Shown here piece after piece: positions 943-54,676 of a stretch of DNA of 54,676 nucleotides; within the stretch, counting starts at the first letter, position 1; every line of letters starts with the position of its first letter. A program made the translations under genes and the position numbers. The stretch is from positions 1-54,676 of the forward strand of contig JAITJQ010000078.1 in NCBI GenBank assembly GCA_031278845.1, read 5' to 3'. Source of the stretch: Puniceicoccales bacterium (GTDB lineage: Bacteria > Verrucomicrobiota > Verrucomicrobiia > Opitutales > LL51). The notes under the pieces were generated by a model, which saw only the letters and a list, made by a program, of their open reading frames with translations, made no database searches and was not told the origin of the DNA.

Positions 943-951
943 TTTCTACTC

Positions 952-4412: not shown

Positions 4413-4421
4413 GATCTCATA

Positions 4422-4853: not shown

Positions 4854-4977
4854 GGGATACCTAACTTCGCTAAACTCTAGAGCCCTAAAACCCCTTGTCA
4901 AACTTTTTTATTAAAAAATTTTAGTCACCTCACCTAAAAGCATTTTAACCGATTGCTTTCCTCGGTTATCCCATCGC

Positions 4978-8058: not shown

Positions 8059-8159
8059 GAATAAAACTTCATTAATGTTGAATGTTTTATTTTTTCTCTT
8101 GACAAAATACTTTCTATAGCACATTTACTCCACATGTGTTGTAAGGTAAACATTGACAG

Positions 8160-8486
8160 CTAAAGACATGGGGATTTATCCATTGAAAGACAATCCACCG
8201 TCATCGCCGCTAGCCTGTCCGATACACATTGAGGATAGCATTTCTTAGTTACCTTCCGCATTTCCTTAATAGCAATTTGATGCGTATCTCCTTTAGAATC
8301 GGTAACTGTACCCGCTTGCACGACACCAAAACCACCTTTTCCCAGCTCCTTTCCTATAGTTACCGTCGCAGCTTTGTCCGCCTTTGATGCTTGCATCTTT
8401 AGTGTTTGGTCTGCCCTTTTAACAAAACTCGCCGTTGGAATACTCCTACCAAAAACTACATACTTTTTACTGCCCGTATTATTCAT
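8160..8486 (-). CDS. short protein carrying only Hanks-kinase subdomains I-II (kinase N-lobe fragment, possible gene remnant)
   Basis: GKELGKGGFGVVQAG (Gly-rich loop GxGxFGxV) followed by HQIAIKEM (the VAIK lysine motif), after which the ORF stops. AGGA lies 8 nt before the ATG at 8486. Confidence 0.4.
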   Translation of the reverse strand: MNNTGSKKYVVFGRSIPTASFVKRADQTLKMQASKADKAATVTIGKELGKGGFGVVQAGTVTDSKGDTHQIAIKEMRKVTKKCYPQCVSDRLAAMTVDCLSMDKSPCL

Positions 8487-8654
8487 AGTAGTTCCTGTTA
8501 TGTGAAAATAAAAAACAATCAATAAAATTTTACTTTAATGCGGAAAGTTTTTCAAAAAAAATACCACAGCTCAATAATGGCCACGTTGCGAAATAATGCA
8601 AAATGCCGCTTGACTTGGAGAAACAATATTAATAGGTATAGAAAATCGTAAGTT

Positions 8655-8909
8655 ATGGCCGAAAAATCAATCGATCAAAGAGTAAGGGAAGTAATCGTCA
8701 ATTCCCTCAATATCAGTGAAGAAAAAGTGACCGATAATGCATCGTTTCTAGACGACCTAGGAGCGGATTCCCTCGGAACTGTCGAACTCATGATGGCTTT
8801 CGAAGATGAATTCGAAAACGAAATCGAAGGCGGTATTCCCGAAACGGATGCCGAAAAATTACTCACCGTCAAAGACGTCATCGAATATATCAAAAGTCGC
8901 ATCGCATAA
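8655..8909 (+). CDS. acpP: acyl carrier protein
   Basis: LGADSLGTVELMMAFE phosphopantetheine-attachment motif, 84 aa, upstream of fabF. Confidence 0.95.
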   Translation: MAEKSIDQRVREVIVNSLNISEEKVTDNASFLDDLGADSLGTVELMMAFEDEFENEIEGGIPETDAEKLLTVKDVIEYIKSRIA

Positions 8910-8916
8910 TGAATGT

Positions 8917-12077: not shown

Positions 12078-12140
12078 TTTTTTCGAAAAATTATTGACAT
12101 TTTAAATTCATTTTGTAGCCTTTCGAAAAAGGATAAAAAT

Positions 12141-12641
12141 ATGTCGAGAGATTTAATGGTACAGGTAATCAGTGATTTTGGCCAAGAAATTGGCGCAGAA
12201 CTGGAGGTTGATGACGAAGCCTATTGCTGTTTAGCGGTGGGCGATGAATTTCAAATTCATCTAAAATTCAACGAGCATTTTAATGGAATGATTTTTTACA
12301 CCGAACTCGGTGAAGTCCCCAATATTGGGAGAAAAGAAGTCCTTCGCCACTACGTTATGCAGAATGGGGATATCGAATCTGATAATCTAACATTTTCCTA
12401 CGATGAAGAGAGTAAGCAACTGGGAATGGCACGCCTATTGCCGGTAGAATTTATAAACTTGGATAATTTAAAAAAGATTCTTGAGAAATTTATCGAACGC
12501 TATCAAAAGGAACACGAAGATATGGTACGGTTTTTACAGGGCGAGCTTCCGAAAGATGACATACAATTCGCAGATGATGGTGCCAATAGCGGTGAAGCTA
12601 TGCCAGCCGGCGGCCTAGATCCACAATTTATTCGCATGTGA
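12141..12641 (+). CDS. class I type III secretion chaperone (CesT/SycE-like)
   Basis: Small acidic protein. The N-terminus (FGQEIGAELEVDDEAYCCLAVGDEFQIHLKF) has the typical chaperone logic of describing a partner, with alternative-state wording. The size fits and it lies near T3SS genes. Assignment rests on pattern only. Confidence 0.55.
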   Translation: MSRDLMVQVISDFGQEIGAELEVDDEAYCCLAVGDEFQIHLKFNEHFNGMIFYTELGEVPNIGRKEVLRHYVMQNGDIESDNLTFSYDEESKQLGMARLLPVEFINLDNLKKILEKFIERYQKEHEDMVRFLQGELPKDDIQFADDGANSGEAMPAGGLDPQFIRM

Positions 12642-12737
12642 TTTTTTATTATTTTATTTTCAATATTCAAAAATATACATAAAAAATATTTGACAAATTT
12701 TCAAAAATAAAAAGAATGAATTGCAGAGGATAAAAAA

Positions 12738-12977
12738 ATGTCAATACCATCATCGTCATCATTACCATTACCATCATTAGATCCCTCAGGCGCTTCAGGA
12801 AAAACATCCGGGAATCCCCCTCCGGATGCACGCATAAGTGGGGCACAAAGAAGGCTTGGCACACCTCCGTCAATACCTGGCAGCCGCCCGCCCGGTTCAT
12901 TATCACCGAGAAAATGCCTATGTGAAGCAATTAAAAATCTTCCTAAGATAAAGTTTATTACGCGGATGGCGCAATGA
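12738..12977 (+). CDS. hypothetical Ser/Pro-rich small protein (speculative)
   Basis: GAGGA lies 8 nt upstream of the ATG and TTGACA is at 12690. The N-terminus MSIPSSSSLPLPSLDPSGASG is Ser-rich and unstructured-looking. It lies in a region where short ORFs overlap on both strands. Confidence 0.2.
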   Translation: MSIPSSSSLPLPSLDPSGASGKTSGNPPPDARISGAQRRLGTPPSIPGSRPPGSLSPRKCLCEAIKNLPKIKFITRMAQ

Positions 12978-13514
12978 AGAGGGAAAATTAAAGGCAAAAA
13001 TAGCGAGAGAAAAAGAGGCGAAAGCCGGAATTTGGGAACGGAATTTGGAAAGCGTAAAGCCAAAAAGGAATTGAAACTTTCCGATGGCCGTTTCCAAGAG
13101 AGAACGTTTTCGGCGCAACTTTTTTTCTATCGGAGTATTTTATTCCAAATTGAGTAATTTTTTGTTTTTCCGTTAGGACCAGATAGAGCTTTAAACCAAA
13201 TGTAGTTGTCGTCGAAGAATGTGTCCCATTGGCTACTCCTCGAAAAGTTCGATGCCGGTTCGCGCGTACATTTTCGCAAACCGGGAGGAAGGGGGGATCG
13301 ACCAACAAGAACCTCGATTTTTCCTCCCGTTACGCCAATTGGAAATAATCTAATCAAGCTTGGGGGAATGATTTTCATTTAATCCCCCTAAATCCTTTTG
13401 CCTTTTATTCAGGCCATTTCATTTCGCCATTCGCGTAATAATATTATAACCGAAATTGAGCAAAGGATTCGAGCATTAAAGCCAATAAACAAATATTGAT
13501 ATAGTGGGTGCCGT

Positions 13515-13904
13515 ATGTCCCTCAAAAAGCTAAGGGACTTTTTAAAAAGGTCTGATATCAATTCATGGATAAGAGAAGAGGTTAATGAAATAGCAAAGGT
13601 ATTATGTATCAATGGTAGTAGCGAAGATTGGGCTGGGGCTGTTCGACAAATCCAGGAGAACAGATCTGAAAGGAATGATTATGATCATTTCCAGGAGTTT
13701 ATAGAATTTACGAAAAAGTATTATAGAAGGTATGATGCCTCTTTCCCGAGGAGATCCTGCTCGCCTCTTAGGAGTTCTTTGGATATGATGCGTCTTGATT
13801 GGAGAAAAGGCGTTGCGATAGCGTGTCTTTTTAACGCACAAATTCTTTCCAATTTATTCGGAAGGGTAGATGTTTATGTCTATAACGTTAGAACGGAAAA
13901 TTAA
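13515..13904 (+). CDS. hypothetical protein
   Basis: 129-aa ORF with no recognisable motif. It converges on the T3SS gatekeeper operon. Confidence 0.35.
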   Translation: MSLKKLRDFLKRSDINSWIREEVNEIAKVLCINGSSEDWAGAVRQIQENRSERNDYDHFQEFIEFTKKYYRRYDASFPRRSCSPLRSSLDMMRLDWRKGVAIACLFNAQILSNLFGRVDVYVYNVRTEN

Positions 13905-14093
13905 AATTTTTGAAATAAGGTATGCTAATGGGCGTCCCTTCGAAAACGAAGTAAACATTGTGAATGCTCGAACGGAAGATGGAAATAACGCTATTTTAGC
14001 CATGCCCAGTGACGATGAAGAAGAAATTGTCCTGTGAAAAGCAATTTTGAAAAGAAAAAATTCAACGATGACCGTAAAAAAGGCCCGTCCTTA

Positions 14094-14480
14094 TCAAAAA
14101 CGGTCAGCGAATTGTCTCAAACGTGTGGTCGTATCGATGAGCTGATTAATGGCGCCTTCAAGTGATACGGGCGAAAAATCTTCGTTCCGAATCCTGATCG
14201 CCAAACCTAACCGGTCCTCGCCCTGTAAAACAGGATTCATCGTGAAATTGTGCTTCGCTTTCTCTTCGCAAAAAATATATGCCGTCGTAATAAGTTTGAA
14301 ATTTAAAACGGGAAATGCGTTAAGTAGGTAAAGGAAAATGTCAGATCGCTGGATGTCGATAAAAAGTTCACCGGTATTCGTAATCGATAGGTGAAGGATG
14401 CCATGAGTGTTCGTCGTAAAAAGGGGAAGACCCATTTTTTTCCCCATATGTATTAAAGCTTCCGTAATGTGACGTTCCAT
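14094..14480 (-). CDS. SycN-like type III secretion chaperone
   Basis: 128 aa, immediately (0 nt) downstream of the TyeA-like gene, in the yopN-tyeA-sycN order known from the Ysc family. The chaperone-like N-terminus contains MGLPL. Confidence 0.6.
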   Translation of the reverse strand: MERHITEALIHMGKKMGLPLFTTNTHGILHLSITNTGELFIDIQRSDIFLYLLNAFPVLNFKLITTAYIFCEEKAKHNFTMNPVLQGEDRLGLAIRIRNEDFSPVSLEGAINQLIDTTTRLRQFADRF

Positions 14481-14798
14481 TTATGAGCTTCCTTTCGCTA
14501 AGAATGCTGACGCAGTAGCCTCCTCTTCCCGTAAAATGAGGGCATCCAGCTTCGTTTGCATAGCCGTAAGCAGCTGCGTCTGCGCTTGATCATCTTTGAA
14601 AAATTTTTGAGGGAGGTTGCGTACGAGTTCGATCGTTTGGTGGAGCGTGTAGATGGCAATCTCTAGATTCTTCGTACTGTCGGGACAAAAAAGATTGATC
14701 AGATTCGTAACCTGCTGGCTACTTACAAATGCTCCCTGTGCGAGCCGGACTAGCTCCCGGGTAGTGGCTAATTGTTCCTTATCGGTCATTTCTTGCAT
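14481..14798 (-). CDS. tyeA: TyeA-like gatekeeper subunit
   Basis: 105 aa. LVRNLPQKFFKDDQAQTQLLTAMQTKLDALILREEE parallels the TyeA core ([25 protein letters not shown], as I recall it). Located directly after the sctW gene. Confidence 0.65.
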   Translation of the reverse strand: MQEMTDKEQLATTRELVRLAQGAFVSSQQVTNLINLFCPDSTKNLEIAIYTLHQTIELVRNLPQKFFKDDQAQTQLLTAMQTKLDALILREEEATASAFLAKGSS

Positions 14799-14810
14799 AA
14801 AAACTCCTAT

Positions 14811-15872
14811 CTATTTCGGTTGGTCAGAAGATGTAGAAAACATACGGCGAATATTACGTCCCAGGATACCAACATTGTCGTAAATCTGCCCACAAATTTC
14901 GATGCGGAAAAGACCGTCGCGCACATGCCGCAATTCTTCCTTGGAACGCGAGGGATTTGAAGAAGCCATATCGATACCAAAAAGGGCGATCATCGAATCA
15001 ATGTAGGGACGAAAGCTCTCCCGTTTTTTTTCCTGTCGGCGGATAAACGTTTCAAAAACATCGAGCGGATTCGTCATATCTAAGACTTCATCGCGGTAGG
15101 TCGCAGCAAAACTGACGGCGCTTTCCGGCGCACTACCATCGCCATATTGTTGGTTTAAAATGGCAGCAGCCTTCGGAATCAAATTGTAGCCGTCACGGAT
15201 CTCCTTCTTATGTGTTTTTTGTAATAGTTCTCGGGCGCGGAGTAATTGTGTTTTAAAAGCATCACTCCTTTGGAGACTATCTTCCAGGGCTGATAGTTTC
15301 TCGGTCCACCGCATACGTTCGGAATTGGTAAAGCCCATATTAATGGTATGGATTGGTGGATTCGAAAAAAAATCGATCATTTTTTTGACCTGGGCTATCT
15401 CCACTTCAAGGGTTTCCCGTTCGAGCGTATGGGTCGCGAGGGCGTATTCCAGAATATTGTCCTGTTCGGTGACTTCACCAAAATTTTCGGCCACCTTGTA
15501 TAATAAAATGTCGCGAAGGGCGTCCTGATTTTCCTCGTTTTGGTATTCCGGTTTGTACCGTTGGCGCGAGAGGTCCGCATAGACCTCCTTATAATGGCGG
15601 GATTGTTTACCTTGACCGAGGCGTTCGGTGTAGGTTATAAGAATTTTTTCTTTTTCCCGGAAAACCTTTTTGCTGACGATATAGCGCCGAAGGAGCGGTT
15701 CGCGCAATTTTTGTTTCGTTGCCTCAAGTCCCGCAATATTGCTTGCCAATTGGATGGCGGATGGGGAAGAATCTTGGACAATAACGACCGATTGGCCGCG
15801 ATAGGTTCCCTGGACGTTGGTAACCTGACTATTATTGCGCCCACCCCTCTGTACTTTTTTAACCTCTGCCAT
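14811..15872 (-). CDS. sctW: type III secretion gatekeeper, YopN/CopN/SctW family (HrpJ-like domain)
   Basis: 353 aa. Non-structured N-terminus rich in S/Q/N/V, a helical body, and a C-terminal IALFGIDMASSNPSRSKEELRHVRDGLFRIE resembling the conserved SctW motif. Divergent from sctD. Confidence 0.7.
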   Translation of the reverse strand: MAEVKKVQRGGRNNSQVTNVQGTYRGQSVVIVQDSSPSAIQLASNIAGLEATKQKLREPLLRRYIVSKKVFREKEKILITYTERLGQGKQSRHYKEVYADLSRQRYKPEYQNEENQDALRDILLYKVAENFGEVTEQDNILEYALATHTLERETLEVEIAQVKKMIDFFSNPPIHTINMGFTNSERMRWTEKLSALEDSLQRSDAFKTQLLRARELLQKTHKKEIRDGYNLIPKAAAILNQQYGDGSAPESAVSFAATYRDEVLDMTNPLDVFETFIRRQEKKRESFRPYIDSMIALFGIDMASSNPSRSKEELRHVRDGLFRIEICGQIYDNVGILGRNIRRMFSTSSDQPK

Positions 15873-16003
15873 CGCTATAAAACATTCTGCAGATAATGTA
15901 TAAAGCGAAATGGAAATGGCAACTCAAACCGAATGGGTGTGAAATTTTTCTTAAAAACATTGACTCTCACAATTTTTCCCATTAAATCCGACTCCATCGT
16001 TTG
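15873..16003. promoter_or_regulatory. divergent promoter region between the gatekeeper and needle operons
   Basis: Plus strand: TTGACT (15959-15964), 17 nt, then TAAATC. Minus strand: TTGAGT, 17 nt, then TTTATA, read from the reverse complement. Sigma-70-like matches judged by eye only. Confidence 0.35.
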
Positions 16004-17485
16004 ATGGGATTAGTGCTCAAAGTATTGTCGGGACCACACCAAGGGGCGGAATTCGATGTTCCCGACGAAGAGATTGTTATCGGCGCTGCGGACGAGTGTG
16101 ATGTTATTATTAGTGATGTTTTGGTTGCCAATAAGCACGTGAATTTGAAGGTGGTCGATGGCCGTGTTTTTATTACGCCCCTCGAAGGAAATGTTTTCGT
16201 TGCCGGAAAATTATTGCGGGAGCCTTCGGCAATTGATAATTTCCAATTTGTAACCATTGGAGCTACCCATATGATGTTTGGTGAGGGTGAGAATGAGCAA
16301 TGGCAAACCGTTGCCCTGGGCGATTTCCCGGAGTTAGAAAAAGTTGAAGAGGCGGTTTCGATTTTCGCGGAGTCTGCGGAAGGTGTTCAGGAGGTTGTAG
16401 AGAGTGGTGCCGATACTGAGGAAAAGAATGAGGATGGGACGCCAAAGGAAAAAGAATTTGTGGCTGATTCCGCAGCGGCATTAATCGAAACAACGGAGCT
16501 TACCGATCGCGAAAGCAAAAAAGCGAAATTCTTAAGGAAAATTTTTGGTGAACGGCAGCTGACGTGGCGCCAAATCATCGTTCGCTACATTTTGGGTTTT
16601 GTACTGTGTTTAGCCATTGCCTTTGGAGCTTCCATTTCCCTGGTTGTTTTGACTCAGAAGGGACCCGTTCCCGCTCTTCCACAACCCATGGATGTGCGCG
16701 TACAAAAGGCCATCGATGCCCTAAAATTTAAAAATAAAATTAAAGTTTCGAAGCCGATCGGTGATGAACCGGTATCCGTTGTGGGTTATGTGGATAAGAT
16801 GGAGGATTCCGTCGCGGTGAAGTCGGCCCTGAAACCGATTTCGGAAGATATTTCCATCAAGCTTTTGGTTATGGAGAAAGTTTTGAGTAGTGCCATGGAG
16901 ATGGTCAAGGAATCGAAACAAAATATTGTTTTGAAACAGGCGGAAGAATTTGGAGAGTTGATTGCGACCGGGTACGTTAAGAAGGAAGAAGGTTGGACGA
17001 ATCTCAAATCGGAGGTTTCTTCCATTAAGGGAATTACGAACATTAGGGATGAGGTTTTGACGAGAACTTCCATTGTCGAATTGGCTAAAACGGTTCTCGA
17101 ACGCCATAAGTTTAGCGATAAACTGGAAGTTGCAGCCAACGATGAGGGCGTCGAAATCAGCGGTACTATCACCGATGCCGATAAGGATAAGTGGGGGGTA
17201 ACCCGTGAGGATTTCGAAAAGACATTCAAGAAGAAGGCACAGGTTAGTTTTAAAATTGCAGTGTCGACGGATCGCAATTTGACCATTGAGAAATTTTTCG
17301 GCGGAAAGATCGATAGCGTAAACTTCAACAGTCAAGGGTTGGATTGGGTAAATATAAAAGGTGGGACGAAATACTTCCAAGGTTCTGTACTGCCGGGTGG
17401 TTACGTTATCGATCGCGTCGAACAGGACAGTGTCACCATTCGTAATGCCGATGAGGTGATAACACTCGATTTGAACTGGATATGA
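16004..17485 (+). CDS. sctD: type III secretion inner-membrane ring protein SctD (YscD/CdsD family) with N-terminal FHA-like domain
   Basis: N-terminal FHA fold pattern (LKVLSGPHQGAEFDVPDEEIVIGAADECDVIISDVLVANKHVNLKV), an acidic linker, a single TM (ILGFVLCLAIAFGASISLVVL), and a ~270-aa periplasmic region. It is the first gene of an sctD-E-F-G-I order. Confidence 0.75.
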   Translation: MGLVLKVLSGPHQGAEFDVPDEEIVIGAADECDVIISDVLVANKHVNLKVVDGRVFITPLEGNVFVAGKLLREPSAIDNFQFVTIGATHMMFGEGENEQWQTVALGDFPELEKVEEAVSIFAESAEGVQEVVESGADTEEKNEDGTPKEKEFVADSAAALIETTELTDRESKKAKFLRKIFGERQLTWRQIIVRYILGFVLCLAIAFGASISLVVLTQKGPVPALPQPMDVRVQKAIDALKFKNKIKVSKPIGDEPVSVVGYVDKMEDSVAVKSALKPISEDISIKLLVMEKVLSSAMEMVKESKQNIVLKQAEEFGELIATGYVKKEEGWTNLKSEVSSIKGITNIRDEVLTRTSIVELAKTVLERHKFSDKLEVAANDEGVEISGTITDADKDKWGVTREDFEKTFKKKAQVSFKIAVSTDRNLTIEKFFGGKIDSVNFNSQGLDWVNIKGGTKYFQGSVLPGGYVIDRVEQDSVTIRNADEVITLDLNWI

Positions 17486-17510
17486 GGTATCCGTAGCGAG
17501 GGCTGGAAAA

Positions 17511-17732
17511 ATGGGGAAAAAAGAACGCATAACGTTAATCGAAATGGAGCGCAAGTTACTCGACGATAAAGATGGCAGCTATCGCCAAGAGTTACTTAAA
17601 AAATTAGCGGAGTATCAGCAATTCGTTAAATCGCGCATAAACAGTGGATTAGATCCCCGCGGATTCGATATTTTTAATAAATTAAAGCAGGCGCTCGAGA
17701 GTGCGAAAGATACGATTATTAATTTTAAATAA
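17511..17732 (+). CDS. yscE: YscE/CdsE-like needle co-chaperone
   Basis: 73 aa. SGLDPRGFDIFNKLKQALESAKDTII parallels YscE RGGDAKQYQVWQRESKALESAIAII (from memory). Positioned between sctD and sctF. Confidence 0.7.
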   Translation: MGKKERITLIEMERKLLDDKDGSYRQELLKKLAEYQQFVKSRINSGLDPRGFDIFNKLKQALESAKDTIINFK

Positions 17733-17825
17733 AAGCATAAAAAAACTTATTGACCTTATAATCTTTTTGTATATTTTGGTGCTTGTAGTAAATGAATTAC
17801 TAACAATTAAAAGAAAGGAAAAAAT

Positions 17826-18140
17826 ATGGCATGGTCAAATCCAACAGATTTGGGATTTCAGGCTGGGGGCGAAAGTCTTCCGGATCTTGGAACTCCTACG
17901 GGGAAGTTAAGTATCTTCAATATGTATATCGTTTTAGCGAGTTACATGACGGCCTATGAAAAAGGTCTTGCGGATACAATTAAATGTATTGAAGGGAGTG
18001 CGGCGTCGGATATCGACCAGGGAACACTATTGCGTTTACAGGCGATGGTGCAGACCTGGGGAACGGTTGCTTCGACGTCAACGGGTATCATCCGTACGGT
18101 TGGTGATACGTTAACGAAAATTGTACAGAATGTTCGTTGA
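17826..18140 (+). CDS. sctF: type III secretion needle subunit SctF
   Basis: 104 aa. The C-terminal LLRLQAMVQTWGTVASTSTGIIRTVGDTLTKIVQNVR fits the needle-protein helix-turn-helix C-terminus (LQ..W....S..I..KD....I.Q). It is flanked by the yscE-like and yscG-like genes. Confidence 0.8.
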   Translation: MAWSNPTDLGFQAGGESLPDLGTPTGKLSIFNMYIVLASYMTAYEKGLADTIKCIEGSAASDIDQGTLLRLQAMVQTWGTVASTSTGIIRTVGDTLTKIVQNVR

Positions 18141-18146
18141 TTAATT

Positions 18147-18560
18147 ATGCCCTTTACGTTCCATCAAAGTACGGATTTCGACGAGGCAGAGGTGCCTACT
18201 GAAATAATTCGCTTACTCATCGATATCGGTTATGTATCGACGGGGAGTGGGCGAAAGCGGGATGCCGAAAATATATTCGAAAGTGTTATTGCGGCACGTC
18301 CCAAACAGGAGTTACCCTTTGTTGCTTATTCTTTTATGCGGATGGTTTTTGGAGAATACGTCGAAGCATCAAACCTATTGGTTGAGAGAGCGTTAAAAAT
18401 CAATCCCAAGAGTGAGATGGCGCAGGTTTTTTATGGTCTGCTGCTGTATCAGGTGGGACGTAGAGGCGAAAGTGATATGATTTTATCGGGTATTATGGAC
18501 AATGGAAAAGATAAAGATGCATACCGATTAGCGGAAAGCATTATTAAGGAAGGGAAATAA
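18147..18560 (+). CDS. yscG: YscG/CdsG-like TPR needle co-chaperone
   Basis: 137 aa. LLIDIGYVSTGSGRKRDAENIFESV parallels YscG [25 protein letters not shown] (from memory). The remainder is TPR-like. Confidence 0.7.
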   Translation: MPFTFHQSTDFDEAEVPTEIIRLLIDIGYVSTGSGRKRDAENIFESVIAARPKQELPFVAYSFMRMVFGEYVEASNLLVERALKINPKSEMAQVFYGLLLYQVGRRGESDMILSGIMDNGKDKDAYRLAESIIKEGK

Positions 18561-18561
18561 A

Positions 18562-19029
18562 ATGGCAATAGAAGTAGCAGCAGCAACGGAGAGGATAGGT
18601 GGTGTGCTAGCGCGACAGGCAGCAAACGTCGGAGGAATTTCCGCTGGGACGATGATTGAGGGGGTTATTCCTCCATTTAGGGCAGACGTCGCCGGTGAAT
18701 TTCAAGCGATGGTGAATGGGGGCGTTACGTTACCCAACCTCAGTGGTGCTCTAAAAGGTGGTCGCAGAAGACGTCGACTCATAGAGCCATTGCGATTGAA
18801 TACACCGAGTCAAGGTGTTGTAAGTTCGATCCAAAGTGTGCGTGACAAATTTATGGAGATTCAACACAATGTTGAAGCGTTTGCAAGCAAGAAGGAGGAT
18901 CTTTCGAGTGGGGATCTTCTGAAGATGCAAGTGGATGTGATGCAACTGGCTTATTTGAACGAACTTTCATCGAAGGTAGCGGACAAGACGAGTCAAGGTG
19001 CGCAGACGTTATTCCGCAATCAGGGATAG
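18562..19029 (+). CDS. sctI: type III secretion inner rod protein SctI
   Basis: The C-terminus DLLKMQVDVMQLAYLNELSSKVADKTSQGAQTLFRNQG parallels YscI DLMLMQWSLIRITIQEELIAKTAGRMSQNVETLSKGG (from memory). 155 aa, and only 1 nt after the yscG-like stop. Confidence 0.75.
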   Translation: MAIEVAAATERIGGVLARQAANVGGISAGTMIEGVIPPFRADVAGEFQAMVNGGVTLPNLSGALKGGRRRRRLIEPLRLNTPSQGVVSSIQSVRDKFMEIQHNVEAFASKKEDLSSGDLLKMQVDVMQLAYLNELSSKVADKTSQGAQTLFRNQG

Positions 19030-29619: not shown

Positions 29620-29736
29620 AGATTTGGGTTGGATTTGGGGGGATATTTTGATTGTTTACAACGGGAGATCCTTTATTTAATTTTTGTATTTTCTGTATCT
29701 TTTATTTTTTGTTGAGCAAGAGCTGCGCGGTTTTTT

Positions 29737-29850
29737 GGGGGCAAAAGCTGCGCGGTTTTACCGCGCAAGGCCTGGAGCGAAGCTCCAGGCCTTACAAGGA
29801 GCCTGCGGCTCCTTGGCTTTTGCCCCCAAACGCGCCCCTTCGGGGCGCGT
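29737..29850. repeat. GC-rich nested-palindrome element A (four-way-junction fold plus one extra hairpin)
   Basis: Outer stem GGGGGCAAAAG (29737-47) pairs with CTTTTGCCCCC (29817-27). It encloses three hairpins: 29749-67 (TGCGCGGT ttt ACCGCGCA), 29769-91 (GGCCTGGAGC gaa GCTCCAGGCC) and 29795-815 (CAAGGAGCC tgc GGCTCCTTG). An extra hairpin follows at 29830-50 (ACGCGCCCC ttc GGGGCGCGT). Confidence 0.8.
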
Positions 29851-29928
29851 AACATTAATTTAACATTGCAAGTCTCATTCCCTTGGATTTAACATTGCAA
29901 AGTCCCTAGCCCTCCCAATGATTCACCT

Positions 29929-37479: not shown

Positions 37480-39237
37480 ATGCAAAATTTTGCGGAACAG
37501 TGTACGGATGTAGCCCGTTCGATTTTGAGTCACAATTTGGGTTACATCGATGAGGAAGGTAATATTCAGGTCGCGGACTACGAGAAACCTGTGGGCGATG
37601 AGGCGGCACACGTCGCATTTGCGCTCGGGGAGTACTATCGTTTGACGCACGAGACGAATTTTCTCCAGCACGACATCATCGATTTAGCGGCGAAAATGAT
37701 TGTTTATCAGTTGGAGAATGTGCCGAAAAGTAATGATTGGGGGGGCTACATCGCTTTAGCGCTACTATCTTTTGGGGCTGTTAAGGAGCGCAATCCGGTT
37801 TGGGAGAAACTTTCGGCGGAGGTGCGCATTCAACTGGACAATTTATTGATTCGTCGGGATGAGCTCAAGGGTAATGGGTTTGCGTGTGCGATTGCGAAGG
37901 CGGTTGCGCGGCACGGTTTGCGCATTACGAAAAAGGATGAAACGGGGAAATTGATCGATCGATTTCTTGCCTATTGCGAAGAGCATTCGACGGGTGGATT
38001 TTTTGATGGGGATAGAGGCAAGGGAATAGGGGGGAATTTCGACGTTAAGGGGCTATTTAATCTTTCGTTTATTCGTCAGGCGCTCCATCTACACACGGAT
38101 AATTTTTTCATTGAAAAAAAATTGCCCAGTCTACGCACCCATGCCGAAAAGTGCATTAATTTGATTCCGGATCTTATGCGGGAGGATGGTACCTGTTGGG
38201 TATATGGGGAATGTGTTGGAGCGTACGCGCAGATGTACTGTATTAGTACGATTTTGCAGGCGTTACGGGATCGTTGGATTGTTCCGGAGAAGCAGTCGTT
38301 ATACGTCAACATTGTCCTTGATTTATTTCAGAAGTTTTTCTGTCACTACATCGATCAGGAGAGCGGTTACATGGTAATTCGCGATGAGGAGCGTTCTTCT
38401 GGGGATGAGCAGAGTAGTATTCGGGCTAATTTTGATGCGGTACGTTATTTATGCCAGTGGTCACGGTTAACGCGGAAGAGTCCGATTGTTGCGGGGCGCA
38501 TACGTCGTGTTTCGGCATTTAAGCCAGGGAATCGGCTTGTTATTTTCGACAAGGGTTTGAAGCGGGAGAGTGGGTTATTTATTTATCGTGATGCGAAAAC
38601 GGGGATGAATTTGCAGCTGCCGTTAATTGGTAGCAATGGGCGGGCGGATAGCGATTGTCTAGCATTTCCGCATTGTCCGGGTGTTTTTGATTGGCCATCG
38701 GGGAAATACCTACCCATTTTGCAACCGGAGTTGACGATTGATGGCAGGCGTTATATTCCGTCCTACTACGGCAAGAAATTGTCGACGGGTTTAGGAAGTC
38801 ACGGGAATATTATTTTTGCCTACGAGCAGCCGGAGCTCATTACGGTAGAGGAGGAAATTGTGCCGGGGATAGCGAGTTGCAAAGTGGCGTGGATATTTTC
38901 GGAGACGAAGATAACGTCGGAGTTTACGTATACGGTGAAGGATCGCATACGCGTCGAGTCTTTGCGGTACATGATCGTGTTAAGTGCACCTCATTCGATT
39001 TATGGGGCGAACAATTTGGCTTTGGACGAGCAGAGTTTAGGGGCAATAGTGGAGCATGACGACATGATGTTGAGTTGGCGAGAGATTGTGGAAGTTGGTA
39101 GTGATATGGAGTATCGGACCTGCTATGGGAAAATTCATTATTTGCAGGAATTATCGCGGAGTTATCCATTGATCATGCATCCGGGGCAGCCGTATCGGTT
39201 GATTGTGAGTTTTATACCTGGAGTGATTCGTATTTAG
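37480..39237 (+). CDS. hypothetical 585-aa cytoplasmic protein, family not recognised
   Basis: Long clean ORF starting 14 nt after the rho stop. No signal peptide or TM. No motif I can name. Confidence 0.6.
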   Translation: MQNFAEQCTDVARSILSHNLGYIDEEGNIQVADYEKPVGDEAAHVAFALGEYYRLTHETNFLQHDIIDLAAKMIVYQLENVPKSNDWGGYIALALLSFGAVKERNPVWEKLSAEVRIQLDNLLIRRDELKGNGFACAIAKAVARHGLRITKKDETGKLIDRFLAYCEEHSTGGFFDGDRGKGIGGNFDVKGLFNLSFIRQALHLHTDNFFIEKKLPSLRTHAEKCINLIPDLMREDGTCWVYGECVGAYAQMYCISTILQALRDRWIVPEKQSLYVNIVLDLFQKFFCHYIDQESGYMVIRDEERSSGDEQSSIRANFDAVRYLCQWSRLTRKSPIVAGRIRRVSAFKPGNRLVIFDKGLKRESGLFIYRDAKTGMNLQLPLIGSNGRADSDCLAFPHCPGVFDWPSGKYLPILQPELTIDGRRYIPSYYGKKLSTGLGSHGNIIFAYEQPELITVEEEIVPGIASCKVAWIFSETKITSEFTYTVKDRIRVESLRYMIVLSAPHSIYGANNLALDEQSLGAIVEHDDMMLSWREIVEVGSDMEYRTCYGKIHYLQELSRSYPLIMHPGQPYRLIVSFIPGVIRI

Positions 39238-39246
39238 GTAGGCGGA

Positions 39247-39335
39247 CAAGGGGGAATCCTTCCCCCTTGGACCCCCTTGCTTTGGGGGCACTACTCCATG
39301 CAAATTACTCCATGCAGATTGCGTGGGGGTAGTGC
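39247..39335. repeat. GC-rich palindrome cluster C
   Basis: CAAGGGGGAA tcc TTCCCCCTTG (39247-69); CCCCC ttgcttt GGGGG (39272-88); GCACTAC (39288-94) pairs with GTAGTGC (39329-35), enclosing an 11-nt direct repeat TACTCCATGCA x2 (39292, 39306). Confidence 0.75.
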
Positions 39336-39440
39336 AATTGGAATAAAGAAAAATCTAGAATAAGAGGAAAAGACAGCCTCAAAATTTTTTTTGCAGAAAT
39401 TATTGGAAAAAGAGTTGACAGGCATGGTGAGTTTTCATGT

Positions 39441-40365: not shown

Positions 40366-41555
40366 CATCATACAATTATTGAAGAATTCCGGCATCCCGA
40401 AAAATTTGAACAAAATCCTCCAGATTCTCGCCATCGGGTACGGGTTGATTTTGAACGAAATCGCGCCAAACCTGCTCCACGAGATCTCTAGAAATGGAAT
40501 TTTGTTCAATACGCCCTAGGGATTTTTGCAAACTCTCATGATCAAGAAACCGCTCAATTAACCCATTTATCTGCCCCCATTGCAAGCCTTTCTGAATGCC
40601 TTCCTGCAAGCCTTCCTGCAAGCCTTCCTCTTTCTGCCGTTCCAGTTCTTCGTAGTAGGTAGCCACTTCCTGAACTTCTTCCGCGTAAGCCAACTGATCA
40701 TTCCAATTCAAACCACTAAATTTCAGCCTATCCAGCGCTCTAGCAATTTCCCGGGGCATGCCGATGTTTTGGTATTTTTGAATCTCATCCGCTGTGAACT
40801 TTCCCGAATCTTCCATTGCGTAAGACCACCATTCCGCTGCGGTGAGCGCTTCTCCCCTTCGCATTTTAGCGATAATTTCCTTTATTTTATCATCCCAAGA
40901 CTGCTCTATCGCATCCCTTATCTGCTTTTGATGTTGCCTCCATCCTAAGCTTTTCTGCCTGCTTGCTTGCAAGTCTTCCCGTTCACGGCATTCCATTTCC
41001 TGAGCCTCTTTTTCTAAATCTTCCATCATACAATTATTGAAGGATCCCAGCGTTTTGGAGAGTTTGAACAAAATCCTCCAGATTCTCGCCATCGGGTACG
41101 GGTTGATTTTGAACGAAATCGCGCCAAACCTGCTCCACGAGATCTCTAGAAATGGAATTTTGTTCAATACGTCCTAGGGATTTTTGCAAACTCTCATGAT
41201 CAAGAAACCGCTCAATTAACCCATTTATCTGCCCCCATTGCAAGCCTTTTTGAATGCCTTCTTGCAAGCCTTCCTGCAAGCCTTCCTCTTTCTGCCGTTT
41301 CAATTCTTCGTCGTAGGCAGCCACTTCCTGAATCTCTCCCTCGTAAACCTGCTGATCATCCCGATTCCAACCACTAAATTTCAGCTTATCCAAGGCCTCT
41401 GTTATTTCCTCGGGCATGCCGATGTTTTGGTATTTTTGAATTTCATTTTCTGTGAGTTTTTCCGAATTTTCTATCATGTAATACCACCATTCCGCTGCGG
41501 TGAGCGCTTCTCCCCGTTGAATTTTAGCAGCAATTTCCTTTATTCCCTCCAATTC
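40366..41555 (-). repeat. direct repeat: ~530-bp block present twice with a 660-bp offset (40366-40895 and 41026-41555)
   Basis: The first ~290 bp of each copy are nearly identical (catcatacaattattgaag...gccttcctctttctgccgtt), while the remaining ~240 bp are clearly diverged. A 17-bp relic of the block end, ATTATTGAAGAATTCCG, recurs at 40278. Confidence 0.85.
40376..41029 (-). CDS. stand-alone Rpn C-terminal-domain protein (lacks the PD-(D/E)XK nuclease domain)
   Basis: Starts at MMEDLEKEAQEM, 4 nt after the stop of the full-length gene; the longer ORF from 41167 is an out-of-frame artefact of the repeat. Residues from IKEIIAKMRRGEALTAAEWW to the end parallel the C-terminal 170 aa of the upstream Rpn protein, and the last ~95 aa are almost identical. 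Confidence 0.65.
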   Translation of the reverse strand: MMEDLEKEAQEMECREREDLQASRQKSLGWRQHQKQIRDAIEQSWDDKIKEIIAKMRRGEALTAAEWWSYAMEDSGKFTADEIQKYQNIGMPREIARALDRLKFSGLNWNDQLAYAEEVQEVATYYEELERQKEEGLQEGLQEGIQKGLQWGQINGLIERFLDHESLQKSLGRIEQNSISRDLVEQVWRDFVQNQPVPDGENLEDFVQIFRDAGILQ

Positions 41556-42116
41556 GATTTGGATCAAACAAATCCCTTCAATTTCTTGTTCCGAAAATTT
41601 ATCGGTCATACGATAATATTTCCGGAAACTACTATCCCTGAGTGTAGAATAATCAACAAACTGAATGGCATAAACATTTTTGATTTGTGAATGCCATTCA
41701 CTTCCTCCTTCAAATTCTTGATTGGCAAAGGTGGATGCCGCGTAAAATAGTGCCCGCTTGTCGAAATTATTGTGGCGGATAATTTGCATCTCGATGATGA
41801 CATGATCACGGTTATCGATGATGGCATGGTAATCTAGAATAGCGTTCGATCGCTTGCCTTGAAGCGGGATTCTCGTTTCCCCTTTACTGATAATTTGGAT
41901 GGGCGTAGCTATGTCCACAACTTTCATATCGCGGAAGATCTCATTAATGAGTGCCGTAGCGATGCGGTTATCCGACATCATGATTTTGAATGCCGTATCC
42001 GTCGTTGCCCTTACAAAACTGGTGGGTTTCTCGAATCTACGAACTAAACTCACTCCGGGTTCTAAAAATAAATGCTCTTCTCTAGACACGCCTATAAAAA
42101 TAGCATTTTGTCTCAC
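41034..42116 (-). CDS. Rpn/YhgA-like PD-(D/E)XK nuclease (recombination-promoting nuclease / putative transposase family)
   Basis: N-terminal FVRATTDTAFKIMMSDN, core ILDYHAIIDNRDHVIIEMQI....FDKRALFYAS (the D...E-x-Q/K pattern typical of this family), and a helical C-terminal domain. Confidence 0.7.
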   Translation of the reverse strand: MRQNAIFIGVSREEHLFLEPGVSLVRRFEKPTSFVRATTDTAFKIMMSDNRIATALINEIFRDMKVVDIATPIQIISKGETRIPLQGKRSNAILDYHAIIDNRDHVIIEMQIIRHNNFDKRALFYAASTFANQEFEGGSEWHSQIKNVYAIQFVDYSTLRDSSFRKYYRMTDKFSEQEIEGICLIQIELEGIKEIAAKIQRGEALTAAEWWYYMIENSEKLTENEIQKYQNIGMPEEITEALDKLKFSGWNRDDQQVYEGEIQEVAAYDEELKRQKEEGLQEGLQEGIQKGLQWGQINGLIERFLDHESLQKSLGRIEQNSISRDLVEQVWRDFVQNQPVPDGENLEDFVQTLQNAGILQ

Positions 42117-46085: not shown

Positions 46086-47210
46086 TTACTCTAAGGCATT
46101 AAAAAATTCTTGGGCAATGGCATCGCAGAGGAGGCGGCCTTTGGGGGTGAGGCGGATGCGTTGTTGTTGTTTCGTGAGGAGACCCTGGGTTTTGAGGTTA
46201 TCGACCAGGGATGCTACTTTTTGGCGAAAGATATTTTTCTCCAAATCTACGCCTTCGTTCATCCGTAGGCCGAAAATGATTTCATCGATGGCCAATATTT
46301 TTTTGTCTAACTTTATAACGTCCATTCGTTCCGGAGCATTGATTTCAAGTCCCGTGGCCCAGCGGTTTAGGGAGGCGATATTGGTATAACGTAGTCCACG
46401 ATATTGGCTACTTGCCGATGGTCCCACTCCAATCCATTCGTGCATGAGCCAGGTGTTGCGATTGTGTGCGGATGCATAGTTCCCTTTGCAGAAATTGGAA
46501 ATTTCATATTGCCGATAGCCGTGGGTTTCGAGGAATTCGCAAACCATTCCATAAAAATCATGGTCACGACTTTCGTCGGAACTGTTGCCCAATTTATTTT
46601 TTAGTATCGTGTCATCTTCGTAGGTTAGACAGTAGGTCGAAATGTGTTCCGGATTGAGGGCAATTGCCGCCGATAGATCGTCGAGCAATTGTTTGCTGGT
46701 TTGGCCCGGTGCGGAAAAAATGAGATCGATGCCGACATTGGCGAAACCTACCGAACGGACGAGTTCATGGGCATGAAAAATCTGTTGGGAGGTTTGTTTA
46801 CGGCCGAGCGTGCGCAGGATTGCTTCATTGAAACTTTGTACGCCCATCGAAATGCGATTGATTCCGGCGGCTTTCCAATGTTGTAGTTTTTCGACGCTGA
46901 CCGTGTTGGGCGCGATTTCTACGGTCCACTCCAATGGTATTCTGTGCATTTTTGAATGCAATGTTTGGGCAATTTGGTCGATGGCTTTGGGCGGTAGGAT
47001 TCCAGGGGTTCCGCCACCAAAATAAATTGTGTCGAAGGTGCGTTCGTCGTGAATGGATTGTATTTCCAGGAGGAGTGCGTATAAATAGCGTTCGAGATTT
47101 TGGTGAGATGGTAGTTCTTTATAGAAGGCGCAATAGTCACATTGTGTTGCGCAAAACGGTATATGTATATATAATCCGAGTGGCGTGTAAACTTTTTCTT
47201 GCCTATTCAT
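46086..47210 (-). CDS. hemW: radical SAM heme chaperone HemW (oxygen-independent coproporphyrinogen III oxidase-like)
   Basis: LGLYIHIPFCATQCDYCAFY CxxxCxxC radical-SAM motif, YFGGGTP, and an HemN_C-like C-terminus. Start at Met14 (MNRQEKVY) is preferred (ORF maximum 47249). Confidence 0.88.
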   Translation of the reverse strand: MNRQEKVYTPLGLYIHIPFCATQCDYCAFYKELPSHQNLERYLYALLLEIQSIHDERTFDTIYFGGGTPGILPPKAIDQIAQTLHSKMHRIPLEWTVEIAPNTVSVEKLQHWKAAGINRISMGVQSFNEAILRTLGRKQTSQQIFHAHELVRSVGFANVGIDLIFSAPGQTSKQLLDDLSAAIALNPEHISTYCLTYEDDTILKNKLGNSSDESRDHDFYGMVCEFLETHGYRQYEISNFCKGNYASAHNRNTWLMHEWIGVGPSASSQYRGLRYTNIASLNRWATGLEINAPERMDVIKLDKKILAIDEIIFGLRMNEGVDLEKNIFRQKVASLVDNLKTQGLLTKQQQRIRLTPKGRLLCDAIAQEFFNALE

Positions 47211-47236
47211 TGCTCCATAATTATGGTATCTGCAGC

Positions 47237-48217
47237 ATGAGTTTGTCATCGTATATTGGTAAAATTTTTTTTATAGTGAGTGTGCTTTTTTTGGCCGGTT
47301 GCGACGGCGAAAATATTTGCAATATGACTCCCAGTGTAATGCTTCAAAACCAATCGAATATCTATACCCTTACGATGGCCATCCGTGGTATGGATGGCGA
47401 TGTTTCGCAGAAAAGTATCAAACCTTACATAGTGGTTAATGGCGAAAAACATGAGATGAAAAAACATCCCGATGGCAATAACGTGTTTGTTTATGATTGT
47501 TACTTTTATGGTGTTGGTACGATTCCTTACTATTTCGAGGTGGTTTACGGGATGAATCGCAATGGTAGTATTCGGGAGAAAGTCACAAAATCTAAGTTAT
47601 TTAGTGCAACGGTGACGGATAAGTATATTTTTGCGTTGGATGCGAATCGTGGACCCGTTGGGGTGACTGTGAATGTCGTTGGTTACGGTTTGACAAGGGC
47701 GGATAGGGTGCGCTTTGGAAGGCGTATCGTGCCGACAAATTGGCTATCCGCTGGAGCAATGGAGTTCGTCGTTCCATCCGTTGAGTGCGATAACGAGTAT
47801 GAAGTGTACGTTTTGGCTAATCGGAAGGAGCTTTTTGCGGGAACGTTTTTCGTGGATGCATCGACGCTACGCTGCAGTACGGACTTTATTCGCCTCGCCA
47901 ATGGTGAAAGTCAACGTATTGTGTTTATGCTTGATCATCCGGCACCGGAAGAGGGTGTCGAAATCGAGATCACGACCGATATTCCCGATAGTATTGTTAT
48001 GCCGGAGGTACATTTTATATCGGGTGAGCGTACGGTAAGCGTCAATATTACGGGGGGTGAAGAATCGGCTAAGGGTACGCTATTCGCTCGAGCTAAGGGG
48101 TTTTCGTCGTTGGAAATTCCTTTGGAAGTCGGTGATGGGGCAGATGCGGTGGCTGTATCTAAAAAATTCTATCCCGATCGGTACGTTTGGGATGATGATG
48201 ATGTCGTCGTATTGTAA
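47237..48217 (+). CDS. lipoprotein with beta-sandwich (IPT/TIG-like) appearance
   Basis: The real start is MSLSSYIGKIFFIVSVLFLAGC, with lipobox LAG|C; the upstream 101 codons of the 427-aa ORF are antisense to hemW. The rest is beta-rich (VTVNVVGYGL..RVRFGRRIV..EFVVPS). Confidence 0.65.
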   Translation: MSLSSYIGKIFFIVSVLFLAGCDGENICNMTPSVMLQNQSNIYTLTMAIRGMDGDVSQKSIKPYIVVNGEKHEMKKHPDGNNVFVYDCYFYGVGTIPYYFEVVYGMNRNGSIREKVTKSKLFSATVTDKYIFALDANRGPVGVTVNVVGYGLTRADRVRFGRRIVPTNWLSAGAMEFVVPSVECDNEYEVYVLANRKELFAGTFFVDASTLRCSTDFIRLANGESQRIVFMLDHPAPEEGVEIEITTDIPDSIVMPEVHFISGERTVSVNITGGEESAKGTLFARAKGFSSLEIPLEVGDGADAVAVSKKFYPDRYVWDDDDVVVL

Positions 48218-48364
48218 GGGTATTCGGGGCAGGAAGGTTTGGGCAGTTTGTTGAGTACTTGCGAAGGCGGGTTGTTTGTGCATTTTTAGGTTTATTGATG
48301 CATGTTTGCGGAGGTGGTGTGCTATTTTTTTGGTTTGTTGAAGTATGCTTTATGGGGGCGGGTG

Positions 48365-48448
48365 GCTTTTGTGCACCCGTGGAGGCTTCGCCTCCTGACC
48401 TTTTTTCAAAAGGTTTTGCGGTTTCACCGCAAACGGGTGCACAAAAGC
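48365..48448. repeat. GC-rich nested-palindrome element B (four-way-junction fold)
   Basis: 16-bp outer stem GCTTTTGTGCACCCGT (48365-80) pairs with ACGGGTGCACAAAAGC (48433-48). It encloses GGAGGC ttc GCCTCC (48381-95), ACCTTTT ttc AAAAGGT (48398-414) and TTGCGGT ttc ACCGCAA (48416-32). Confidence 0.85.
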
Positions 48449-48515: not shown

Positions 48516-48902
48516 TTACCGGTTGACGAGCAATGCGATAGCGGAGGCGAGGGATTGGGTATGGGTTAAGGTGATAAGAATTTCGGAGCCATTGAATTGT
48601 TGCAACAAATTTTGTGCGAGCGGGTCGAGGCGGATGAAAGGGCGACCATTAGTTTGGTGATTAACGGTGGCACTTTTCCAATGGAATTGTGGACCGACTC
48701 CGCAATGGAATGCTTTGGAGACGGCTTCTTTAGCGGCGAAGCACGATGCTAGGGATGGGAATGGATTTTTTTTAGAGAAGCAGTAATTGATTTCGTTAGG
48801 GGCGTAGATTTTTCGTAGAAATTTGTCGCCATATTTTTGGTAAGCGGATTGGATGCGGTTAATTTCGACGATATCGTGGCCGATGGAAAGAATGGAATTC
48901 AT
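48516..48902 (-). CDS. acpS: holo-ACP synthase (4'-phosphopantetheinyl transferase)
   Basis: SIGHDIVEINRI, FAAKEAVSKAF, and GRPFIRL. 128 aa. Confidence 0.9.
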   Translation of the reverse strand: MNSILSIGHDIVEINRIQSAYQKYGDKFLRKIYAPNEINYCFSKKNPFPSLASCFAAKEAVSKAFHCGVGPQFHWKSATVNHQTNGRPFIRLDPLAQNLLQQFNGSEILITLTHTQSLASAIALLVNR

Positions 48903-48940: not shown

Positions 48941-48966
48941 AATAAAAGAGGCGGATTGCTCCGCCT
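48941..48966 (-). terminator. rho-independent terminator after the autotransporter gene
   Basis: On the minus strand, AGGCGG agcaat CCGCCT is followed by CTTTTATT, 25 nt after the stop at 48991. Confidence 0.6.
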
Positions 48967-48990
48967 TTCTATGTTTATTTTATATAGCGA

Positions 48991-54532: not shown

Positions 54533-54624
54533 GGTAATGGATAAAAAGCTTACGATTCCCTATGAGAAGGAAAGCGATAAAAGTTTTTTTCGTAGCCGAA
54601 GCTGCCCAAGGGGGTTCCGGCTGC

Positions 54625-54676
54625 CCAGGGGGGCTCTGCCCCCCTGGACCACCCGCAAGGAGTCGGAGACTCCTTG
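54625..54676. repeat. GC-rich palindrome cluster D (truncated by window end)
   Basis: CCAGGGGGGC tct GCCCCCCTGG (54625-47) and CAAGGAGTC gga GACTCCTTG (54656-76). They use the same stem vocabulary as elements A and C. Confidence 0.75.

Follow-up and report, generated by a model that had tools for sequence, protein, structure and literature searches.

Stable stem-loops that lie 3' of genes, often between convergent ones, and that are followed by no U-run are described for the REP/BIME palindromes of Escherichia coli and for Rho-dependent 3' ends. Stem-loops of the latter kind mark and protect such ends without a U-tract (PMC6061677), and REP elements act as terminator-stabilisers, those located between two convergent genes being associated with increased expression of the pair (bioRxiv 10.64898/2026.03.23.713779). 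The roles proposed for these structures are those of an exonuclease barrier, a partial terminator and a site of structure-specific protein binding. Here, we describe element B, an 84-nt four-way-junction palindrome at positions 48365-48448 of a 54.7-kb stretch of DNA (the window), which is the whole of contig JAITJQ010000078.1 from a metagenome-assembled genome of an uncultured member of the Puniceicoccales (Verrucomicrobiota). B has the same kind of location and the same lack of a following U-run, similar roles can be proposed for it, and its 52-nt core has been inverted repeatedly among related genomes. It differs from REP elements in several respects. REP sequences form a dispersed family of hundreds of copies, whereas B appears to occupy a single locus, with no paralogue in the 294 kb searched. 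A REP is an imperfect single hairpin, while B is a perfect nested palindrome with a four-helix junction. REP elements carry a conserved GTAG-type head and are associated with a RAYT protein, whereas B has no such head, no shared flanking tetranucleotide and no Y1_Tnp among the open reading frames (ORFs) of the window.

Other described systems bear on how perfect palindromes are made and rearranged. Template switching creates and maintains perfect stems, yields multi-base compensatory changes and inverts loops (PMC8794818), and it has been put forward as the process that preserves the perfection of inverted repeats in bacteria (PMC5941160). In plastomes, small inversions (4-50 bp) flanked by hairpins are pervasive (PMC12371153). 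The hairpin-associated small inversions of plastids (Kelchner and Wendel 1996, cited in PMC12371153) and the loop inversions attributed to template switching (PMC8794818) resemble B in that a short segment within a short inverted repeat is recurrently reverse-complemented, homoplasiously among close relatives and with no recombinase, and in having perfect stems with paired compensatory changes. In contrast to these cases, the inverted 'loop' of B is 52 nt long and itself comprises three conserved hairpins, and the whole unit appears to be under strong purifying selection in a bacterial chromosome. The conserved perfect inverted repeats of proteobacteria (Lavi et al. 2018, PMC5941160) are, like B, conserved in orthologous regions beyond expectation, which was ascribed to template-switch correction; these are single short inverted repeats, whereas the palindrome of B is nested, has several branches and encloses an invertible core. 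In invertons, which are phase-variable invertible promoters, inverted repeats likewise bound a segment that is found both ways, and invertons also neighbour surface-protein genes. Unlike them, B has no invertase nearby and no promoter in the segment, is far shorter, and is known in its two orientations from different strains or species, whereas the orientations of invertons occur within one population. B lies outside any curated family and behaves as a single-locus, REP-like 3'-end palindrome combined with a plastid-style hairpin micro-inversion.

Structure and conservation of element B

B consists of a 16-nt left outer arm, GCTTTTGTGCACCCGT (48365-48380), a 52-nt interior (48381-48432) and a 16-nt right outer arm, ACGGGTGCACAAAAGC (48433-48448), none of which is assigned to a strand. 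On the forward strand, the left arm is followed by hairpin 1 (GGAGGC-ttc-GCCTCC, 48381-48395, with a 6-bp stem), the bases tg, hairpin 2 (ACCTTTT-ttc-AAAAGGT, 48398-48414, with a 7-bp stem), a single t and hairpin 3 (TTGCGGT-ttc-ACCGCAA, 48416-48432, with a 7-bp stem), which directly adjoins the right arm. The opposite strand of hairpin 1 reads GGAG-GCGAAGC-CTCC and, thus, holds the d(GCGAAGC) mini-hairpin word. A first-pass annotation of the window had described a perfect 16-bp outer stem enclosing hairpins of 6, 7 and 7 bp, each closed by a TTC loop, with almost no unpaired junction bases, between a convergent lipoprotein gene and acpS. This description was confirmed, as the arms are 100% complementary, the three hairpins and their loops are present, only 1-2 junction bases are unpaired and the two genes do converge on B. 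Counting a G.T pair, or one base that the outer arm also uses, brings the inner stems up to 8 bp.

Folded as RNA, B reached -53.3 kcal/mol, compared with -22.4 +/- 3.1 kcal/mol for dinucleotide shuffles (z = -10.0, with 0 of 200 shuffles as good). As DNA, both strands adopted the same four-way junction, at -36.7 and -36.4 kcal/mol (z ~ -9.8). A generic scan for four-way structures, requiring a perfect arm of at least 8 nt around at least two perfect hairpins that fill the interior, retrieved from the real window only B, a second structure that we call element A (29734-29830) and one weak AT-rich match, whereas 40 dinucleotide-preserving shuffles yielded 0.05 matches per window. Structures that combine three hairpins with an arm of 12 nt or longer, of which the real window has two (A and B), appeared in 0 of the 40 shuffles. 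An assembly artefact was ruled out because B is carried by nine independent assemblies and by a contig of an independent Logan assembly (SRR14710901), where its sequence is identical. The fold is real, non-random and biologically meaningful. The earlier claim that it goes beyond coincidence and is under selection is supported, both by the shuffle tests and by conservation of the element in orthologous loci.

Homologous loci of relatives (labelled L002-L020) were gathered by means of the hemN-like gene and the lipoprotein gene. B was present in nine independent assemblies, namely the window, L013, L017, L002, L018, L003, L014, L004 and L005. It lies directly 3' of the same lipoprotein gene in all nine; acpS adjoins it in most of them, the exceptions being L004 and L005, where B keeps its place with no neighbouring acpS. 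Read on a common strand, the nine copies have a mean column identity of 94%, and identities to the window copy range from 0.92 to 0.97. By comparison, identity at four-fold degenerate sites of hemN and the lipoprotein gene is 0.81 for the closest relative and 0.47-0.58 for distant relatives, and the intergenic flanks can be aligned between the window and L013 only. The left-arm core TGCACCCGT and the stem of hairpin 1 are unchanged in all nine carriers, while the distal GCT extension of the left arm is specific to the window. Where the first-pass annotation had seen shared architecture with divergent sequence, B proved to be conserved in the sequence itself (92-97%).

The same annotation had looked to further copies elsewhere in the genome and held that the fold would be coincidental if there were none. 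A covariance model built from B (R1) matched the orthologous copy only in 294 kb of window and relatives, about 168 kb of which comes from carrier genomes. By that rule B would fail, yet its conservation among orthologues shows it to be real; it is this conservation, and not copy number, that establishes the element. Searches with the Rfam 15 covariance models and ARAGORN assigned no family to B, the matches above the gathering threshold being two tRNAs elsewhere in the window, and relaxing Rfam to E values of up to 10 gave only noise in the region of B. An exact-pattern scan with GGAGGCNNNGCCTCCACGGGTGCA returned 0 matches in the viral_contigs collection and 0 in metagenome_contigs, the latter being uninformative on distribution, as this collection evidently does not include the JGI samples of L013, L014, L017 and L018. 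A blastn search of B against plasmids and phages gave only a chance match of 23 nt, and a literature search on 'nested palindrome' returned nothing useful.

Covariation was assessed on a seven-sequence alignment (A2) with 500 shuffles. Standard pairs accounted for 95% of cells, compared with 41-51% when partners were slid by 1-3 columns, and the observed covariation score was reached by 0 of the 500 shuffles. Two-sided changes occurred in six pairs, four of them in the conserved core and inner hairpins and two at peripheral outer-stem columns that are unpaired in most sequences; no variation occurs in hairpin 1 or in the outer-stem core, which are, thus, uninformative in this respect. The compensated pairs fall in the outer stem, in hairpin 2 (two pairs) and in hairpin 3. 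Hairpin 2 is ATTTTTT/AAAAAAT in L004 and L005, with two compensated pairs, and hairpin 3 is TTGCGGC/GCCGCAA in L003, with one. A right-arm C-to-T change is common to L002 and L018, leaving a G.T pair in L018 and a compensated A-T pair in L002. The core and the three hairpins are Watson-Crick paired throughout, the exceptions being a single G.T pair each in L018 and L002 and, in the window, an A.C or G.T at the edge of the junction. The stems of orthologous copies, thus, co-vary while the topology is kept, as the first-pass annotation had proposed to check.

A neighbour-joining tree of hemN and the lipoprotein gene placed the carriers in one clade, with L016, L019, L015, L010 and L006, none of which has B, outside it; the placement of L016 and L019 was less clear in a tree of the lipoprotein only. 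L020, whose lipoprotein is 86% identical to that of the window, falls inside the clade and has a spacer of 14 nt with no B, and therefore B can be lost. In both L020 (1041-1060) and L019 (3957-3980), the spacer between the lipoprotein gene and acpS has shrunk to 14-18 nt, and the absence of B is a deletion of the whole spacer rather than decay of the element. The variants of B track the host tree, as illustrated by the changes common to L004 and L005 and to L002 and L018. Together with the conservation described above, this argues against recent spread as a mobile element. The sequence comparisons support a probable single origin of B in one Puniceicoccales subclade, followed by vertical inheritance under purifying selection.

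Recurrent inversion of the 52-nt core

The main feature of B is the recurrent inversion of its core, which is beyond the reach of a single-sequence reading. The interior faces either way with respect to the lipoprotein gene, the two orientations being F, with GGAGGC-ttc first (window, L017 and L003), and R, with TTGCGGT-gaa first (L013, L014, L002, L018, L004 and L005). The comparison of the window with its closest relative, L013, is the most direct, since their lipoproteins are 95% identical, the flanks are homologous on both sides and the arms are identical. Between these identical arms, the 52-nt interior of one is the reverse complement of the other, with 50 of 52 positions identical after inversion. 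On the two-gene tree, the orientations are distributed as ((window F, L013 R), L017 F), (L018 R, L002 R), L003 F, L014 R and (L004 R, L005 R), a distribution that parsimony explains with no fewer than three inversions. The inverted repeat exactly delimits the inverted segment, whose inversion is homoplasious on the tree. The orientation-normalised alignment of the nine copies shows no breakpoint differences; therefore, the points of exchange lie inside the arms. Normalised to one strand, the 27 loops of the nine carriers are GAA (18), GGA (2), AAA (4), TAAA (2) and CATA (1). No single 3-nt loop has flipped independently, and all three purine loops stay on one strand in each of the nine.

The gene tables of L013-L016 contain no recombinase or transposase gene within 10 kb of B, and no serine or tyrosine recombinase or Y1 transposase was found among the ORFs of the 54.7-kb window. 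The sole recombination-related gene of the window is an ORF at 41034-42116 (minus strand), 6.3 kb from B, which matches PF12784 (PDDEXK_2, PD-(D/E)XK nuclease family transposase, Rpn-like; E = 4e-18). It overlaps the ORF at 40376-41167, and a Yae1_N repeat is common to both.

Rearrangements were also observed beside the arms. In the window, a remnant, GGTTGTTTGTGCA (48270-48282, plus strand), matches the left arm and flank of L013 and L017 and is split from the present left arm by DNA specific to the window (48283-48364, plus strand; about 80-95 nt more than in L013), for which a source copy was looked for and none was found. The present left arm of the window has been lengthened to 16 nt and exactly complements the right arm together with 3 bases of flank. 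In L014 (10895-10945), tandem partial copies of the left arm, TTTGTGCG, TTTGTTTGTGCA and TTTGTTTGTGCACCCGT, stand directly upstream of B. Local rearrangements of this kind are what replication errors at a palindrome are expected to leave.

The first-pass annotation had suggested a templated mechanism as one origin of such nested palindromes, and this fits what was found, the stems being kept Watson-Crick through paired changes and the interior being reverse-complemented in relatives. We read these events as template switching because the perfect arms, the paired changes and the inversion between the arms match published template-switch patterns. Both the inversions and the Watson-Crick symmetry would arise at replication, from intramolecular template switching or from recombination between the 13-16-bp arms, and no dedicated invertase would be involved in the flips.

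Candidate roles of B

Our preferred explanation, to which we give somewhat less than even confidence, is that B is an orientation-tolerant RNA structure of the 3' untranslated region, serving as an exonuclease barrier or a non-canonical terminator, while its DNA is flipped and kept perfect by template switching. B would act in RNA form, with the lipoprotein transcript and, on the other strand, the convergent acpS transcript carrying it at their 3' ends. The RNA, folded as a compact four-helix junction, would stop 3'-5' exonucleases or, alternatively, would serve as a non-canonical, possibly Rho-assisted, terminator and stabiliser. Inversion would be tolerated because palindromic DNA gives nearly the same fold either way. 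The constant site 3' of one gene, even where acpS is not the neighbour, points to an element of the transcript 3' end. A weakly suggestive sign of an RNA role is the distribution of G.U pairs, 6 in the fold of the lipoprotein-sense strand versus 0 in the other.

B was also considered as a canonical intrinsic terminator and rejected. It has a GC-rich stem-loop, but the polarity is wrong and there is no U-tract 3' of the stem. The sole partial match to a terminator is the internal hairpin 1 followed by TGACCTTTTT on the TTC-loop strand. As terminator polarity is lacking, the best analogues are the protective stem-loops without a U-tract and the REP terminator-stabilisers.

Several observations weigh against a 3'-end RNA role. 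The proposal draws on position and analogy, and the 6:0 asymmetry of G.U pairs involves mostly peripheral pairs and is confounded by a G+T-rich sense flank. The arms, of the form TTTG...CAAA, place an A-run rather than a T-run after the stem on both strands, and the sequences flanking B in the nine carriers show no consistent T-tract. It is not obvious why a simple barrier should require a sequence conserved at 92-97%, or loops made of purines only on one strand (24 of 27 being GAA, GGA or AAA). The near-invariant sequence and the one-strand purine loops are poorly explained in this way; they hint at a partner that recognises a particular sequence or strand, or could reflect a function exerted by the DNA itself. 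B is also dispensable, having been deleted in L020 and probably in L019, inside or near the clade. As to the flips, an enzyme encoded elsewhere in the genome could still catalyse them. The function is put forward tentatively, at a confidence a little short of even.

Several other explanations account for part of these observations. B might be a phase-variable mini-inverton, in which flips at the population level would choose which of the convergent transcripts meets a directional module (hairpin 1 plus the T-run) or carries the GAA-loop junction, tuning termination or antisense read-through of the lipoprotein gene and acpS. The genes adjacent to B encode a surface lipoprotein and an autotransporter, which are the kinds of gene that invertons often control (PMC11892184). 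Both orientations do occur in relatives as close as the window and L013, with at least three flips among the nine carriers, and the terminator-like match formed by hairpin 1 and the following T-run indicates that the interior has some direction. We, nevertheless, consider a mini-inverton unlikely, given that neither the window nor the 10 kb around B in L013-L016 offers an invertase gene and that no promoter-like site was found within 48365-48448 on either strand. Moreover, 52 bp is very short for enzyme-mediated synapsis of flanking repeats, and the inverted segment is nearly palindromic, so that a flip alters little beyond the loops and the order of the hairpins. About as unlikely, in our judgement, is a reversible orientation switch independent of any recombinase, in which hairpin-templated strand switching would flip the core at appreciable frequency within populations and toggle which convergent mRNA, that of the surface lipoprotein or that of acpS, has the GAA-triloop junction or encounters the directional hairpin-plus-U-run; if true, it would represent a new, enzyme-free kind of phase variation at gene 3' ends. 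A role of B as DNA, either as an extruded cruciform or four-way junction bound by a structure-specific protein or as a single-strand priming or assembly signal made of GNA-loop mini-hairpins, is likewise improbable, at about the level of the mini-inverton. It agrees with stems that are fully Watson-Crick on both strands, with the identical folding of both DNA strands, with the GCGAAGC word in hairpin 1 and the predominance of GAA or GGA loops, and with the confinement of all three purine loops to the same strand in the nine carriers. The d(GNA) mini-hairpins are extraordinarily stable and are found at the phage G4 and ssiA priming sites (PMC13037366, PMC3201870), and the binding of REP/BIME by gyrase, IHF and HU offers a likeness for protein binding at the DNA level. 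However, the GAA-loop strand switches between close relatives and, therefore, has no fixed relation to replication direction; a fixed place after one gene would more readily be expected of a transcript element, and B bears no likeness to plasmid or phage sequences.

Mobility would explain B as a MITE- or REP-type element (MITE, miniature inverted-repeat transposable element) that inserted independently, in either orientation, at a preferred target after the lipoprotein gene, its copies being alike through recent spread. Perfect terminal inverted repeats of 13-16 bp, the two orientations at one site and the patchy presence and absence (L020, L019 and L016) are compatible with this. Nonetheless, it is the least probable of the readings considered, since the covariance model found no second copy in the 294 kb, there are no target-site duplications or flanking direct repeats, the window encodes neither a transposase nor a Y1 (RAYT-type) protein, the viral, plasmid and phage collections contained nothing like it, and the variants follow the host tree, with intermediate and compensated states in L018 and L002. 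A stand-alone, trans-acting small RNA gene with a four-way-junction fold is scarcely more probable. Strong sequence conservation, covarying stems and purine loops kept on one strand would suit it, but no conserved promoter or terminator surrounds B, because the flanks are not conserved; the flips relative to an outside promoter would turn the transcript into its own complement, and no Rfam family was matched at E values of up to 10. B might also be a functionless by-product of template-switch hairpin formation specific to this lineage, persisting because it is harmless. The lineage of the window and L013 does have recent and variable arrays of perfect GC-rich hairpins that its relatives lack, and B is dispensable in L020. 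Even so, we regard a functionless by-product as improbable, somewhat less so than a small RNA. In relatives with four-fold identities of 0.47-0.58, which is near saturation and at which neutral DNA is unalignable, B remains 0.92-0.96 identical, including loops and junction bases, and unbiased conversion from arm to arm keeps symmetry, not sequence.

Element A, neighbouring genes and significance

Element A (29734-29850, no strand assigned) lies 3' of accC and consists of a 15-bp outer stem (29734-29830) around three perfect hairpins with 3-nt loops, with a fourth hairpin, CCCC-TTCG-GGGG, just outside the outer stem. Its fold reaches -77.6 kcal/mol (z = -10.8), and a direct repeat, AGCTGCGCGGTTTT, occurs in its region at 29721 and 29747. 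A resembles B in that three perfect hairpins, each with a 3-nt loop, are enclosed by an outer stem (15-16 bp) and the whole lies 3' of a gene, and the order of the hairpins is the same when B is read in the GAA-loop orientation. The words that the first-pass annotation had found in both, GCGGT-NNN-ACCGC and the G-run followed by CAAAAGC, are indeed present in A and B. The kinship that it had drawn between the two holds for topology, but common descent in one family is unproven because the covariance model of B does not recognise A, giving only a partial match (E = 5.9). An orthologue of A was found in L009 (9771-9860), whose LepA is 95% identical; it has the same orientation, a compensated change in each of the three hairpins and a difference in each of the three loops, one of which, ttt in the window and aaa in L009, looks like a loop inversion. 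A, thus, evolves faster than B, every hairpin and loop differing at this LepA identity. Neither of the two known copies of A is flipped relative to the other, and A is missing from L010, which has a short spacer, and from L011, in which the spacer is rearranged. A conserved motif, TTGATTTAACATTGCAA, which is probably a promoter or leader element, was observed upstream of lepA in the window (29866-29905, where it is duplicated), in L009 (about 9960-9980) and in L010 (about 9955-9975, as TTTGACATTGCAA).

Other hairpins were observed in the same lineage. The spacer between rpoN and the mur ligase gene (window 54600-54676; L013 9690-9995) contains an array made up of perfect, GC-rich hairpins whose stems measure 7-18 bp and whose loops are 3 nt long. 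There are eight of them in L013, where the Mur ligase ORF was called across the array (556 aa instead of 439 aa); the contig of the window ends inside the array. L014, L002, L003 and L016 lack it. A further cluster, specific to the window (39247-39340), starts 10 nt after the ORF at 37480-39237 and comprises, in order, CAAGGGGGAA-tcc-TTCCCCCTTG, a CCCCC...GGGGG hairpin and a GCACTAC...GTAGTGC stem around a direct repeat of ACTCCATGCA. The word CMAGGRG...CYCCTKG is common to several hairpins of the source genome. The recent and variable hairpin arrays suggest an active hairpin-generating process in the lineage of the window and L013, which could provide raw material for junctions like those of A and B.

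The lipoprotein gene next to B occupies 47237-48217 on the plus strand. A mechanically called ORF (46934-48217) overlaps hemN on the opposite strand, and the true start is at 47237, at a signal peptide with the lipobox MSLSSYIGKIFFIVSVLFLAGC; the homologues, which are named IPT/TIG, are about 326 aa long. The convergent acpS gene lies at 48516-48902 on the minus strand. The spacer between the two genes had been described as unusually GC-rich, for which there is little ground, as it has 47.7% GC compared with 44.3% for the window and 47-51% for adjacent coding DNA. Between acpS and the autotransporter gene, a canonical bidirectional intrinsic terminator (48947-48968) consists of an A-run, AGGCGGA-ttgc-TCCGCCT and a T-run and is kept in L013; ordinary terminators, therefore, exist in the source genome.

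Elsewhere in the window, type III secretion genes were observed at 12141-19029 (CesT, SycN, TyeA, YscD, needle and YscI-like), in an observation that also drew on L009 and L011. A relative with a complete genome of 878 kb (CP095464.1) has neither A nor B. The secretion genes and the small genome of this relative are consistent with a host-associated, genome-reducing lineage. The GC skew of the first part of the window (1-16000) changes sign near 12 kb, where gene orientation also changes. A replication origin at this position was considered and is probably not present, since no dnaA is found there and the skew follows gene orientation.

B provides a clean natural case, in bacteria, of a multi-branch perfect palindrome that appears to be under strong purifying selection at one locus. 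In the same element, the stems evolve through paired changes and the structured core has been repeatedly inverted with no visible recombinase. As a defined element of 84 nt, it opens the template-switch model for the origin and maintenance of hairpins to direct testing, and, if the flips occur within populations, it would offer a new route to phase variation. B also adds an uncharacterised class of 3'-end structure to what is known of a poorly known, host-associated clade of Verrucomicrobiota.

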